Below the pieces are notes generated by a model, which saw only the letters and a program-made list of their open reading frames with translations, made no database searches and had not been told where the DNA came from. Below, in pieces: positions 2,627 to 8,516 of a stretch of DNA of 64,000 nt. The stretch is from an uncultured Phycisphaerales bacterium. GTDB taxonomy: Bacteria > Planctomycetota > Phycisphaerae > Tepidisphaerales > Tepidisphaeraceae. The number at the start of each line of letters is the position of its first letter. The first letter of the stretch is position 1. The stretch is taken from positions 800,001-864,000 of the forward strand of contig CAVWLP010000003.1 in NCBI GenBank assembly GCA_963755915.1, in the 5' to 3' direction. The translations under genes were made by a program, and so were the position numbers.

Positions 2627-2800
2627 CTCTCCGCACTTTTTCCCCTGTCTTTCCCTGAGCTCGAAACTCCTCAGCGCCTGTCACGGGGCGCGCCAAAACC
2701 AGCCAGGGCGGGGCGCTTCAAAACCGGCCAATGTGCTGACGTATTCTATACCGCATCCGTTCTATCCGACGCAACTGTTCCTTGAGTTATTGGTCCCCGT

Positions 2801-3691
2801 TCACGCCGTCTGGCCGGCGGATACCCCCACATCAGAAGACAACGGCGGCTCTGTCACGGTGTCTTCCGGGGGGGAGCACCCTTCATCGCCGGCGGTACTC
2901 CGCCGTCCTTTTGGATTTGTCTTTTCCGGTGTCCCGGATTGGCCTGCCGTGAGCGAAGTCGAATGGCCCCCATGCCGAAGGCGGTAGCTCTTGCCGGTGA
3001 TGTTGATGATCGTGGCGTGCTGCAGGAACCGATCCAGAATGGCCGTGGCCGCCGGCACGTCGCCGATCAGCTTGGCCCAGTCCTCCAGTGGACGGTTGCT
3101 GGTCATCATCGTCGAGCGGTTCTCGTGCCGGCGCATGACGATCTCCAGCAGGCATTCGCCGCTGCGCCGCGGAAGCTGCTTCATTCCCATGTCGTCGATG
3201 ATAAGCAGATCAGGCTTGAGATACCGGGCCAGCGTCTTGTCCTGGGCTCCCAGATCCTCGTCGCCTAAAAAGTCGCGGGCCAGGTCGAAGATGGATCGGT
3301 ACAGGACCACCAAGCCGCTCTTGATCGCCTGGTGTCCGATGGCCTGGGCCAAAAACGATTTGCCCACGCCGGGCGGACCCAGCAAGAGCACGTCACGTTT
3401 GTCACGAATGAACTGGCCGGCGGCCAGATCGTGAATCTGTTTGCGTTTGATGGAGGTGTTGAAGGAGAAGTCGAACTCGTCGAGGTTTTTGGTGTCGCGG
3501 AACATCGCCGCCTTGACGCGCCGGCCGATCTGCCGGCTGGATCGGACGTTCAGTTCATCCTGAAGGATCAGTTCCAAAAACTCACTGTGGTCGAGCCGAT
3601 TGCCGGCCGCCTCGCTCAGGCGAACTTCAAGGCTGCTCGCCAGACCTGAAAGCCGAAGTTGCTTGAGCGTCTGCATCAACGAAGGTCTCAT
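2801..3691 (-). CDS. istB: IS21 helper ATPase IstB
   Basis: LDEFDFSF, Walker A GPPGVGKS, Walker B LLIIDD, TSN, AILDR and GKSYRLR motifs. Overlaps the istA stop. Confidence 0.95.
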   Translation of the reverse strand: MRPSLMQTLKQLRLSGLASSLEVRLSEAAGNRLDHSEFLELILQDELNVRSSRQIGRRVKAAMFRDTKNLDEFDFSFNTSIKRKQIHDLAAGQFIRDKRDVLLLGPPGVGKSFLAQAIGHQAIKSGLVVLYRSIFDLARDFLGDEDLGAQDKTLARYLKPDLLIIDDMGMKQLPRRSGECLLEIVMRRHENRSTMMTSNRPLEDWAKLIGDVPAATAILDRFLQHATIINITGKSYRLRHGGHSTSLTAGQSGTPEKTNPKGRRSTAGDEGCSPPEDTVTEPPLSSDVGVSAGQTA

Positions 3692-5373
3692 GGGGTGGAC
3701 TCCCTTCGGCTCTGCTCAGGGCAGGCCTGTAAAGGTTGTGCGGCAGGCAAAGCCTCCGCTTGGGTGATTGCGTCGCGTACGAACTGTCCGTAATCGGCCA
3801 GTCCGCGGATGATTGGATGTTCCTGAACAAACTCGAAGTGTTGTTGAACCGGCGCGCCGTTTTGGTGTTCGATGAGCTGCCGCAGGGAGCGCAGGTGATA
3901 CGCGCCATGCCCCAGAGCAATCTCGCAGGCTCGTTCCACGGCCGGTCGCGGCTGCTGATTGGCCAGCGACAGCAGCCCCATCAACACGCGCACGCCTTCG
4001 ATGCCGCGATGCTGAAGCATTGACTGCGCCCACTGCGTGGCGTGCGGCCCGATGCATTCGATCCGCTGGAGAAGCCAGGTCGTTCCACGCTCGATGCCGC
4101 TGATCTTCTCCGGCAGGATATGGGCGTCTTGCGTCGAGAACCTGCCCGGCGGACGCTGCGCGTGCAGAGCGATCGCACGCATCTTCTGATCGAACAGCCG
4201 GACCGTGCGCCCGTCCCACCGCGCCCAGACCCGCTGGCCCAAAAACTCCGGCGGGACCGAATAGTACGCCCCCTTGATCTCCACGTGCCCGTCGCGGTGA
4301 ACACTGCGCAACGCCTCGGTGAAAAGATCGAATCGCACCGGCGGCAGAGCCAACAGTGCCGGCTTCTCTACCTGCTCGAAGACTTCCTTCACCTGCCGCC
4401 GCGTCGTGCCGTGGATGCGCGTGTCGGCCACGCTCTTCTCCCACGTCAGCAGATGCGCGTTCTGATCCGAGAGCGAGGCGAATTGCCGGCCTTTGAGAGC
4501 ATTGCTCTTCACATAGCCGATGCCCCGCTCGATCTTCCCCTTGTGCCGCGGCGTGTACGGCTTGGTGGGCAGAATGGCGATTCCATAATGTTCGGCGAAC
4601 GACCGGACCTTGGGACACAACTCCGCCTCGAACCAGTCCGCCCGCGTCACCGCCGCGCGAAGATTGTCGATCACCAGCGCTGACGGCATCCCGCCGAAGT
4701 GCGTAAAGGCATTTTCCAGACAACGCAGAAAATCATCGGTCGTCTGCCGCTCCACCGCCTCGGCGTACCCCTTGCGGCTGTGGCTCAGCACAATGCGGAA
4801 GACCCAGGTTGCTTTGCGTTTGCCGTCAGGACCGACCAGGGGCGCACCCCGGCCGAAGTCCACCTGCCCTCGGCTCCCGGCTCGCATTCCATCCGGCGCA
4901 CGCTGTAATAGCTGCCGGCATAGCCGTGATCGCTGGAGATGTCTTGATAAATCCGCTGGGCCGTCAGCCCGGCTTCCAACTTCTGAACAATGACCTCACG
5001 CCAGGGCGATGCCGTACTGACCGACCCGATGGGCGCGCCGGATAACCCGGTGGGCGCGCTCTCCGAGCCGCCTGCGGCGAGCACCGTCGAGCCGCCTGCG
5101 GCGAGCACCGTCGAGCCGCCTGCGGCGAGCACCGTCGAGCCGCCTGCGGCGAGCACCGTCGAGCCGCCTGCGGCGAGCACCGTCGAGCCGAGGGGCGCGC
5201 TGGCCGGTTTTGAATCCGATCCGGGCACCGCAGGATCGCCGCCCGACAACCGGATGTGGCGTCCAACGGTCTCCCGGTGAACGCCGAGTTGGCGGGCGAT
5301 GTTCCGATTGGACCAGCCGCTGCGCAAGTGCCAAAATTGCTTGTACTTCCGCCATCTTGAGTTGATTGGCCAT
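3688..5373 (-). CDS. istA: IS21 transposase IstA (two frameshifts, ~5320 and ~4870)
   Basis: N-terminal HTH (MANQLKMAEVQAILAL..GWSNRNIARQLGVHRETV), DDE motifs QVDFG, VIDN and KGKIERG, C-terminal YYSVP. Split over three frames. Confidence 0.85.
5065..5190. repeat. 24-bp tandem repeat, 5.25 copies, inside istA
   Basis: GAGCCGCCTGCGGCGAGCACCGTC x5 plus GAGCCG. Encodes (STVLAAGG)n in frame. Confidence 0.95.
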
Positions 5374-5574
5374 CCCACCATTGGCTTGCGGCAACCGCCG
5401 AAAGCCAAGGTCGATAACCCAATCTCCTGTGCCTCAAAATGGCCGGTTTTGGCGCGCCCTCAATTGGCCGGTTTTGCGCCCCATGACACAGCGCCCCGCC
5501 GCCGAAAGCACCGGAGGTGCTTGGGCGGTACTCCGCGAAACGTGGGCCGGAGGCCGTCCCTAACTTCTCCCCGT

Positions 5575-5621
5575 GTAGCCGCCGTGCTTGACTTCGGTGA
5601 GCTGTCTCGAACCGCACGGCG
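5575..5621 (+). repeat. GTAG-type REP with a 24-bp element inserted in its loop
   Basis: GTAGCCGCCGTGCTT-[GACTTCGGTGAGCTGTCTCGAACC]-GCACGGCG, compared with the uninterrupted copy at 2604. Confidence 0.7.
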
Positions 5622-5864
5622 CTTTCCCGCCAAATACCTCAAGGCCGCCCCCGACCGTCACAAGGCCAGCCAAGTGCCACCGCGGCGGAACCGCGTTTTA
5701 TATTCGAGTCAACGCCTCTTCTCGTCCCCCAAACCATAACCGAAAATACTCTTCCTTCTTTTTACGATGTAAATCCGACCGCTTCGCTCCAATAAATGTG
5801 GGGAATCCCACTCATAAATTCTTCCTCTTTCTTGGCATCTTGGCGTCTTCTATGAGCCGAGCCT

Positions 5865-5870
5865 TGTCAA
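5865..5870 (-). promoter_or_regulatory. Outward-facing -35 box TTGACA at the IS110 3' end
   Basis: Perfect TTGACA on the minus strand next to the inverted repeat. In the circular junction GAAACT, a weak -10, would lie 17 nt downstream. Confidence 0.5.
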
Positions 5871-5879
5871 GGGGCGTTG

Positions 5880-6175
5880 ATCGCTCATGCGGTCGATTGG
5901 GTGAGCCTTCTATTCAGTGCTCTCGCCTGGCGGCGGGCCTATTCAACTGTACAAATGGCCAGCCCTATTCTTAGCGGCAAGCTTTGAAGCTTAAGACGCC
6001 AACCGGGGTCTGGCCTTGCTCATTCAACCTGCACGAACGCGTCAATTCCACTTCACTTCAACTCTACTCAATCCCCTGCACAGAAGACAACGGCTTTCTG
6101 ACACGGTGTCTTCCGGAGGGGAGATACTCCATCGCCTGTACCGACTTGTCGGGACAGTCATCGCCTTTTCGATTT
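5880..6175 (-). ncRNA. Putative bridge/seek RNA of the IS110 element (boundaries approximate)
   Basis: Stem GGCCAG..CCC/GGG.CUGGCC (5957-6015) encloses two guides matching the insertion site, separated by an AAGCU-UCAA-AGCUU hairpin. Confidence 0.8.
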
Positions 6176-7219
6176 TCAAGTGGCCGCCGTCAGCGATCGC
6201 TGGGGTTCTCTCCATCGGGTTCCGTCCCGCAGCATCGCCCACAGCTTCACCAGTAATCTCCTGGCTACCGCAACAATCGCGATCTTCTTGCGCTTCTCGC
6301 TGTCACGTAGAACCCTCTCGTACACGTCCTTCATCCACGTATTGCGATGAACCCCCAGCCACGCCACCTCCACCAGCAACTCCCGCAGCAGCGCGTTGCC
6401 TGCCTTGCTGATCCGCCCCTGGCGATCGCTGTCGCCGCTCTGCCAGCGCCGCGGCGTCAGACCCACGTAACATCCCACCTGACGTGCATTCTTGAATCGC
6501 CTGGGATCATCAATGATCACCGCCACCGCCTCGCTCAGCCGCGGACCAACGCCGGGCACCTCCTGCAATCGTTTCACCGCTTTGTTGGCCTGGCCCAACT
6601 CCTGAAGCTTGCTTTCGACAGTTTCGATCTGCTTCTCCAGGTGCTCCAGTTGCGCCACCTCACAACCGATCTGAAACAGCCACAGATCTTCCGCCGATGC
6701 GGCCGCTGCTTCCTTCCTCATTTCCTCCAGTCGCGCTTTCGTCCACGCCTTGGTCGCCGAGGGCAAATACAAACCCTGCCGCTCGTAGATTGATCGGATC
6801 GAGTTCTTGAGCGCCGTGCGGCGATCCACCAGGCCGTGTCTGTATTCAATCAATGAACGCCACTGCCGAACCGATGCCTTGGGCACGTGCACCGTCGGCA
6901 GCGAATCCATCTCCGACATCGCCGCCATCTTCAGCGCGTCTTTACGATCACTCTTCTCCTTCACCGTCTTCCAGCGCCAGCGTTCATCGTTGCCATTGGC
7001 CACCTGGACGGGAACATTGTTCCGCTCCGCCAGATCACAAACCCATCCTGCCGCCGGACCGGCCTCGATGACCAGTCGATCCGGACGCACCCGCTCGAGT
7101 AGTTTTTGCACCTCGTGGGCATTGGTGCCGATCTTGCCGAACGTTCTTTCTCCACCGCCGGTGACATAATCCACAAAAACGCTCTTGTTCTTTCCCAGGT
7201 CCAAAGCGAGAATTCGCAT
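6176..7219 (-). CDS. IS110-family DEDD transposase/recombinase
   Basis: ALDLG, VIEAG and KSDRKDA (DEDD tetrad); VPGVGP, YVGLTP..QSG (catalytic Ser region), ISKAGN, AVARRL. AAGGA RBS before the ATG at 7219. Confidence 0.95.
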   Translation of the reverse strand: MRILALDLGKNKSVFVDYVTGGGERTFGKIGTNAHEVQKLLERVRPDRLVIEAGPAAGWVCDLAERNNVPVQVANGNDERWRWKTVKEKSDRKDALKMAAMSEMDSLPTVHVPKASVRQWRSLIEYRHGLVDRRTALKNSIRSIYERQGLYLPSATKAWTKARLEEMRKEAAAASAEDLWLFQIGCEVAQLEHLEKQIETVESKLQELGQANKAVKRLQEVPGVGPRLSEAVAVIIDDPRRFKNARQVGCYVGLTPRRWQSGDSDRQGRISKAGNALLRELLVEVAWLGVHRNTWMKDVYERVLRDSEKRKKIAIVAVARRLLVKLWAMLRDGTRWREPQRSLTAAT

Positions 7220-7330
7220 TGCCGAGTCCTTTCTCAAAAAAGACGTTTGAGCGACCTACGCGGTACGCTCGTTCATACTTGGGGCATTTTGACCCCGTTC
7301 ACGTCCCGAGAAAGGCTCGGCTTCATAGTT

Positions 7331-7371
7331 TCTTGGCGGTTATAAGATTTTTAACCGCCAAGACGCCAAGA
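7331..7371. repeat. Remainder of the palindromic target of the IS110
   Basis: The rebuilt empty site TCTTGGCGTCTTGGCGGTTA is the exact reverse complement of 7352-7371 TAACCGCCAAGACGCCAAGA. Confidence 0.85.
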
Positions 7372-7404
7372 GCGCAAGAAAGAAGCAGATAAAAAGAAAT
7401 TTAT

Positions 7405-8516
7405 TTAGAGCGTGCGCTTAAACAGCAACGTCGCAAACCCCAACGCCAGCAGCGAAAAAATCGTCAGAAACGCCAGATCCTGCCAGATCGCTATGAGCCC
7501 TGTGTTCTTGAGGATCAGCTCCTTAAACCCATGCACGGCATACGTAAACGGATCGACCACCGCAATGCACTTCATCCAGGTCGGAAACGACTCCTGCGGA
7601 TAAACCGCCCCGCTCGGAAAATACAAAACCGTATTCAGCATCCCGAAAATCGCCCGCGGCACCAGCGGATCGTTCACCCGCACCATGATCAAAAACATCA
7701 TGCTGATCAGCGCCATCGACGTGGCAACCACCAGAATCATCAATTTCAACATGCGGACCGGATTAAGCGGGTCCGGTATACCCGCGATGAGCGAACCGAT
7801 GGTAACCAGAACCAGCCCCGCGATGATCGCCTTGGCAGCCCCCGCAAAGGTGAAACCAAGGATCAGCTCAACCTTGCGGATTGGCGTCACGAGATATCCT
7901 TCGTGCAGCCCGCGCGCCTTATCGTCGATGAAGATGATCCCACCGCCGATCATCGCCGAGACGAAGATCGACAGCGTGATGATCCCCGGCAAAAGGAACT
8001 GGATATACGGCACATACGGATAGACCTCCACGACGTTCAGCGTCGCATCCGCTGTCGTGCGCCAGGCACTTGCGGACCATTGTACGTCTGAAGCATCGAC
8101 CCAATACTCGCTTCCAGGGCATCGGATGAGAACTGGTCCGTGTTATCGACCACCACCGCGATCTGCGGATTGGCGCCCGCCAGGACTTTCCGCGAAAAAT
8201 TGGGCGGAATGTTCAGCACGCCCTGGATCTTCCCATCCCGCAAATCGCGCACCGCCACCGCATTGTCGGAGTAAGGGATGGTGTCGAAAGTCCGGGCATT
8301 CGCCGCGATCGCCTGGCACATCTCCTTGATCTTGATCGCCGGAACCCCGTGGTCCTGGTCCACGACCCCCACCTTCATGTTCTTGATCTTCCCCCCGAAC
8401 GCATACCCCAGCACGATGAGCTGCACCAGCGGCATGATCATCGAGACGATCATCAGCACCGGGCTGGCCTTAAATCGCCGAAGGTCGCGCTCGATGATGG
8501 CCCAGATTCGATGCAT
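7405..8516 (-). CDS. ABC-2 type exporter permease (frameshift ~8050)
   Basis: ORFs 8037-8516 and 7405-8031 are the two halves: VGVVDQD extracellular domain, then FLLPGII, YFPSGAVYP and DPFTYAV. Confidence 0.88.

Follow-up and report, generated by a model that had tools for sequence, protein, structure and literature searches.

Results

The window analyzed here is a 64,000-nt stretch of one contig from an uncultured Phycisphaerales bacterium, whose assembly (G000) comprises 6.6 Mb and is 81% complete. It contains an insertion sequence of the IS110 family lying in one arm of an inverted repeat next to the end of an efflux operon. Element ends were fixed by comparison with relatives. The features of the locus are as follows.

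5830..5846 (−): tail half of the interrupted arm, probably derived from the partner site of a 45-kb inversion
5847..5848 (−): right core copy (AG), 2 bp
5849..7331 (−): IS1111-group IS110 element, core to core; 1,483 bp, or 1,485 bp when one core is counted
5849..6175 (−): downstream noncoding end encoding a predicted bridge/seek RNA (folding, covariation)
5850..5865: right sub-terminal inverted repeat (sequence)
5865..5870 (−): TTGACA hexamer, pointing outward from the right end (sequence)
5907..5913 (−): predicted left-donor guide ATAGAAG; matches the element right end plus core
5945..5950 (−): putative right-donor guide, imperfect; conserved column block in alignment A1
5970..5977 (−): predicted left-target guide CCGCTAAG; corresponds to target CCGCCAAG, a single G-U pair being predicted
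5993..6002 (−): predicted right-target guide TTGGCGTCTT; pairs with the top strand of the target right half
6176..7219 (−): DEDD recombinase gene, 347 amino acids (PF01548 and PF02371; NF033542 above cutoff)
7312..7328: left sub-terminal inverted repeat (sequence)
7332..7333 (−): left core copy (AG), 2 bp
7334..7342 (−): head half of the interrupted arm (sequence)
7343..7351: AT-rich spacer; conserved in the head-to-head doublets of G000
7352..7380 (+): second arm, unoccupied; perfect target for the guides, core at 7361–7362
7405..8516 (−): ABC-2 permease, last gene of the HlyD/ABC operon (Pfam); ends 34 nt from the hairpin

Removal of positions 5850–7330 together with one TCTT restores, exactly as the original prediction had it, two 20-bp arms, one the exact reverse complement of the other, separated by a 9-nt loop; the element lies in the left arm. 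The position downstream of the efflux operon also proved correct, with the hairpin 34 nt past the stop codon of the HlyD/ABC-2 operon, and the target is indeed present a second time, intact and inverted, in the other arm (7352–7371). Terminator prediction called no terminator-like site at the hairpin. Within the permease gene, a one-base difference from the related genome G001 at window position 8041 produces two open reading frames (ORFs) of 159 and 208 amino acids; the orthologs are one protein of about 370 amino acids, and the split is possibly a sequencing error.

On the other side of the element, an IS21-family element and repeats at 5495–5757 make the spacer a heap of mobile DNA. The IS21-family element (istA/istB; window about 2701–5489) carries a 24-nt tandem array close to its start and is present in about 26 copies in G000. 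Another dispersed repeat, ~117 nt long, occupies 5641–5757 and contains conserved boxes at intervals. It gave 40 nhmmer matches in G000, in spacers between predicted genes, and no match in an Rfam search; the same repeat is targeted by the element of a more distant relative, G011.

The recombinase combines an N-terminal DEDD RuvC-like domain with a C-terminal domain carrying the catalytic serine, the architecture of IS110 recombinases (D7, E52, D91, and D94; GLTP....SG with S261), and scores 216.6 bits with NF033542 against a cutoff of 140. The two sub-terminal inverted repeats share an 11-bp perfect match with a bulged extension, within the 7 to 17 bp expected of the IS1111 group, and the noncoding end downstream of the gene is long (327 nt, compared to 112 nt upstream). 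The element therefore belongs to the IS1111 group as delimited in the description by Siddiquee et al. 2024 (PMC11187229). G000 contains nine full-length copies, seven of them identical and two at 99.93%, with junctions alike in all nine. The explanation of the locus that we find very likely as a whole includes an element that is intact and recently active. The TTGACA hexamer would stand 17 nt ahead of a weak −10-like hexamer only in a circle junction; no promoter was called on the linear element sequence, and the circle-junction motif is absent from the G000 assembly.

All nine G000 copies are inserted at a single base of the repeat arm. Two orthologous sites in G001 have the exact predicted empty form, in which the flanks are joined over one core, so that insertion takes place at a short core without target-site duplication, as in other IS110 elements. 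Exact empties were found at only two of the seven collinear orthologous sites; at the other five, the arm is missing, shortened, or otherwise altered, which points to a fast turnover of the repeats. TCTT, first taken for the core, turned out to be a 4-nt microhomology: in a relative from G011 with 73% identity and the same ends, flanks and element ends have only AG in common, and the true core is therefore the 2-nt AG (transposase strand).

Empty sites had been suggested as something to look for in related genomes or in raw reads. The G001 sites provided the former; in the four short-read DNA runs, which were examined as contigs, neither element joints nor an empty allele was seen. Depth over the element in run X1 was 32 compared to 3 to 5 in its flanks. 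One contig from run X4 joins the left flank of this copy to a flank of another copy; we took it as a collapse of a multicopy repeat and set it aside as evidence of rearrangement. The single RNA run contained 0.09 of the words.

The interrupted repeat is dispersed in the genome. The exact 18-mer AACCGCCAAGACGCCAAG has 19 empty occurrences in G000, compared to none for the 15-mer target read backwards, so the target sequence in the second arm is not a chance match. The genome-wide count and the mapping of all copies, nine of nine of which lie in the repeat, exclude the case of a unique motif with other copies in unrelated sequence. Looser patterns recovered 61 arms; perfect guide targets number 31, of which 9 are filled and 22 empty. 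Most arms (38) are paired head to head, giving 19 doublets in which the AT-rich spacer is conserved and perfect arms reach 31 bp. Hairpins of this kind are the normal form of the repeat in G000, and a second target left intact beside an insertion is thus the usual state. Hairpins are formed by doublets only, not by single arms. Second arms are a usable class of targets: in the doublet at C2:4754189, the G000 element occupies one arm and the element of G001 the opposite arm.

As had been proposed, the target is a repeat found between genes, at least for the most part. With ORFs taken from a crude gene caller, 28 of 30 empty arms fall outside them at a coding density of ~77%; filled arms do so in nine of nine cases, a count that insertion itself would bias. 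The two arms inside an ORF belong to the same doublet, which is in frame with an ORF of weak score. A weakly predicted ORF of 212 amino acids at C2:4361489–4362128 includes, in frame, a head-to-head doublet together with a second palindrome. The element would land mostly between genes and, because G000 arms come as head-to-head doublets, usually next to a second arm.

Several arms are modified. One variant has lost its first-unit target to a 9-nt insert; it has 8 copies in G000 and 44 in G001, and was not found in G003, G010, and G011. The locus L083 and the flank at C2:2525162 of G000 carry a roughly 24-nt insert within the arm tails.

The noncoding downstream end is predicted to fold stably (z = −6.0), and 15 of 23 consensus pairs show two-sided changes in an alignment of 11 homologous sequences. 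An Rfam search of this end returned nothing at the gathering score and one sub-threshold chance match. In the predicted fold, TTGGCGTCTT (6002–5993) and CCGCTAAG (5977–5970) form the two sides of one internal loop. Across homologs, the right-target guide changes together with the right flank, and in several of them the left-donor guide follows the variable base of the right end. The predicted guides are arranged so that the top-strand match lies 5′ of the bottom-strand match in the RNA, which is the order described for IS1111 seekRNAs (PMC11187229).

Guide-flank agreement was compared across 40 homolog loci, of which 17 were dropped (7 without a right end and 10 without the anchor motif); the 23 kept represent 18 distinct loops. 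For the left guides, which were anchored by position, cognate agreement was 4.9 of 6 compared to 3.0 when permuted (16 loops); for the right guides, it was 6.5 of 7 compared to 5.5 (17 loops). On either side, none of 10,000 permutations scored as high, a frequency that is not a true probability, since related elements share targets and the permutation rows are not independent. The right guides of L005, L068, and L102 need a one-base bulge, having an extra base beside the core relative to the observed flank, which suggests that such a bulge may be tolerated; that of L099 matches poorly.

We propose that the recombinase works with an RNA encoded in the downstream end, a loop of which would pair with both halves of the target. 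The target would be a 15-bp site, CCGCCA-AG-ACGCCAA, in the first unit of the dispersed repeat arm, and it would be recombined with the joined ends of the element at the 2-bp AG core with no target duplication. Taken as a whole, RNA-guided, IS1111-type targeting of this arm site is very likely to be the best explanation of the locus. The copies, their site, the guides and their covariation, the identity of the arm, and the exchanged flanks described below can be read from the genomes compared; expression of the RNA, a circular intermediate, and catalysis would follow by analogy with the IS110 family as presented for IS621 (PMC11208160).

Relatives of the element differ in guides and in targets. 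The recombinase of G001 is 90% identical in amino acid sequence to that of G000, and its right guide differs by three bases. All four G001 copies lie one unit further along the same arm, three of them at the second unit of arms with the 9-nt insert, and 47 first-unit sites are free; in G000, insertions at second-unit sites number 0 of 22. The G011 element (73% amino acid identity) has other guides, and 15 of its 15 right flanks lie in another repeat, leaving 45 perfect G000-type sites empty. Of the elements that share the right end, L067 uses the G000 site, that of G009, with guides TCCGCGCCT and CGCAGAG, lies in a CGCAGAG-type arm, and those of L068 and G002, and probably G049, have arm-like right flanks; G011, L099, G006, G828, G854, and the more distant homologs have different targets. 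Judged by eye, L107 is presumably aimed at a tRNA gene, L103/L116 at the coding region of another insertion sequence (IS), and L069 at a tandem repeat.

When similarity of the relatives’ flanks to arms was measured over 16 nt, it exceeded all shuffles for L026, L008, L067, and L134; for L068, L010, and L135 it only equaled the highest shuffle, as it also did for L144, a non-arm locus. In a post hoc heptamer count, at least two words occurred in 5 of 36 flanks (L008, L067, L068, L134, and L135) and a single word in a further five, among them this copy and L010; the background was 0.4%. A tree of the homologs found here, built with no named reference and with G002 and G009 left out, does not resolve L068, L099, L112, and the G000 clade, so that a single origin of arm targeting has no support from the tree.

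The arm was originally thought to be lineage specific. It is patchily distributed instead: the exact 18-mer occurs in 19 of 301 genomes of the phylum, in 17 genera, and the arm at up to one mismatch occurs in 21 of 61 relatives (a tally that includes the unpublished G014). In G003, G008, G010, and G017, the same arm, as inverted copies, frames GxxExxY nuclease genes of the TIGR04256 family. More generally, an inverted match of at least 11 bases spans the gene at 20 of 29 GxxExxY loci, compared to 4% of noncognate pairs; the exact arm variant is carried by 2 of the 29 top-scoring loci. A GxxExxY gene is present in 47 of the 61 genomes searched, and the G000 assembly (81% complete) gave no match at E ≤ 0.001. 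Judged by this framing, the G000 arm is an arm type of GxxExxY cassettes, and it is very likely the gene-less form of the arms that frame these nuclease genes. Since arms are oriented heads-out around GxxExxY genes and heads-in in the G000 doublets, the latter would be a derived unit.

The flanks of the present copy point to a larger event. In G001, the permease end is joined via one arm to DNA upstream of xseA; in G000, the xseA flank belongs to an inverted element copy at C3:759409–760889. An 80-kb alignment with G001 shows the 45 kb between these two G000 copies reversed, both breakpoints falling in intervals that contain the element copies. Compared with G001, this copy and C3:759409 have swapped flanks, and near flanks are collinear at the other seven of nine copies. 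After insertion, this copy and the identical inverted copy 45 kb away probably recombined and flipped the DNA between them. Inversions between homologous inverted IS copies are known in kind, and here, too, the reversed segment lies between two inverted identical copies. By parsimony, the inversion probably took place in the G000 line and through recombination between the copies. If it is real, the reconstructed hairpin joins halves of two original sites, the left half of its arm probably coming from a different one, and exchanging the flanks back gives a perfect arm of 24 bp as the ancestral state. The as-assembled tail also pairs in part with the second arm, which counts against the inversion.

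It remains to weigh other readings of the targeting. That the recombinase reads the hairpin or cruciform of a doublet, or a sequence recognized by protein, with the guide-like matches being incidental, is extremely unlikely. Head-to-head doublets do hold six of the nine copies, and the leftover 12-bp hairpin still folds (z = −6.5); however, the arms that hold the other three copies have no partner within 60 nt, the units used in G000 and G001 differ in step with the three-base guide change, the G011 element ignores perfect sites, and guides covary with flanks. The palindrome is thus dispensable and is not the targeting signal; the predicted guide RNA would explain the targeting. Local rearrangement between neighboring inverted arms, also envisaged at first, found no support: although the second arm is a perfect target and both spacer orientations are found among doublets, it is very unlikely that neighboring arms serve as a local invertible switch or a preferred re-insertion site. 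Arm-arm inversion would flip the short spacer only; target-target recombination is reported not to have been seen with IS621 (PMC11208158); and no joints appear in contigs of the four runs, which drop rare forms. Among the 19 doublets, 6 have one arm filled, 13 have none, and 0 have both, as random placement would give (P = 0.44). The same figure led us to reject exclusion between the arms of a doublet, and there was no sign of second-arm protection or arm-side bias, filled arms being found on both sides of the spacer. Rearrangement is instead seen at another scale, between the two element copies 45 kb apart.

The remaining alternative keeps RNA-guided targeting as described and ascribes the 45-kb inversion to an assembly error or to recombination between arms in the sister lineage. 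We consider it unlikely, although with an appreciable chance of being correct. Both G000 breakpoints are at identical repeats (inverted 1.5-kb copies) that short-read contigs cannot phase, and the inversion rests on the single comparison of G000 with G001, outgroup synteny being absent in G004, G006, G007, G011, and G012 (G011 is too rearranged), so that no usable outgroup exists among the genomes compared. Against this alternative, the other seven of nine copies were phased collinearly with G001, and the G001 junction consists of a single uninterrupted arm and includes no long repeat. Had the event happened in G001, the location of both breakpoints on filled arms would be a coincidence, since 9 of 61 arms are filled. 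Recombination between the two element copies in the G000 line remains our preferred reading.

Discussion

Repeats of the REP/REPIN type, which are associated with RAYT genes, are dispersed, mostly intergenic, often arranged as inverted doublets, variable between sister species, and used as targets by ISs. The G000 arms resemble them in being dispersed and mostly extragenic. They differ in structure, since each REP unit is a short palindrome whereas the G000 arm consists of tandem direct 8- to 9-nt units, and in the associated gene, which here is a PD-(D/E)XK nuclease of the GxxExxY family. A link to RAYT was looked for and not found: the two Y1_Tnp matches at C3:576500 and C3:1125127 have no arm (at up to two mismatches) nearby in this 81% complete genome.

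The mechanism itself is already known, and as first framed, namely as an RNA-guided IS1111 element at a dispersed repeat, the element is ordinary. Its closest counterparts are ISEc11, ISPa11, and ISKpn4, which are described as IS1111-family seekRNA elements by Siddiquee et al. 2024 (PMC11187229) and share with it a DEDD recombinase of 330 to 350 amino acids, a GL-P----SG motif, sub-terminal inverted repeats, a long downstream noncoding region, and the top-then-bottom order of target matches. ISPa11 is reported to target REPs (PMC1525189). In contrast to these systems, the host here is a planctomycete, the RNA is predicted from sequence alone, and the target is a tandem-unit arm of a GxxExxY cassette that is not itself a palindrome. 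The bridge RNA system of IS621, as presented by Durrant et al. 2024 (PMC11208160) and Hiraizumi et al. 2024 (PMC11208158), likewise has a 2-nt core common to target and donor, carries the guides for both on a single structured RNA, inserts into dispersed repeats, and shows natural covariation of guide and target among orthologs; it differs in having the RNA upstream of the gene and no long sub-terminal repeats, whereas here the predicted RNA lies downstream and has the IS1111 order of guides.

What sets the present case apart is its landing site, an arm of GxxExxY nuclease cassettes, a little-studied family. We found no literature on such arms or on ISs targeting them in the sources consulted; published IS110 target tables (supplements of PMC11208160 and PMC11187229) could list similar targets. 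The target class is apparently undescribed. The likely 45-kb inversion by two copies would mean that the chromosome is reshaped even when the target is a “safe” intergenic one. A literature search found no report of natural guide retargeting; natural guide variation is known for IS621 (PMC11208160).

The series formed by G000/L067, G001, G009, L068, and probably G002 and G049 raises the possibility, which we put forward tentatively, that one sub-clade of IS1111 elements in planctomycetes has long lived as a parasite of GxxExxY-cassette arms, re-tuning its guides to arm variants and units and seeding large inversions. If so, a minimal guide change would have opened arms whose first site a 9-nt insert had destroyed, the series would provide natural guide-target pairs on near-identical recombinases, and RNA-guided transposition would be tied to an undescribed repeat-nuclease system. 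The G000/G001 pair is a natural case, ready to hand, in which guide register and core position of IS1111-type RNAs can be tested. G000 also contains two further multicopy IS110-family elements, with 6 and 4 copies (C2:149417 and nine more places).
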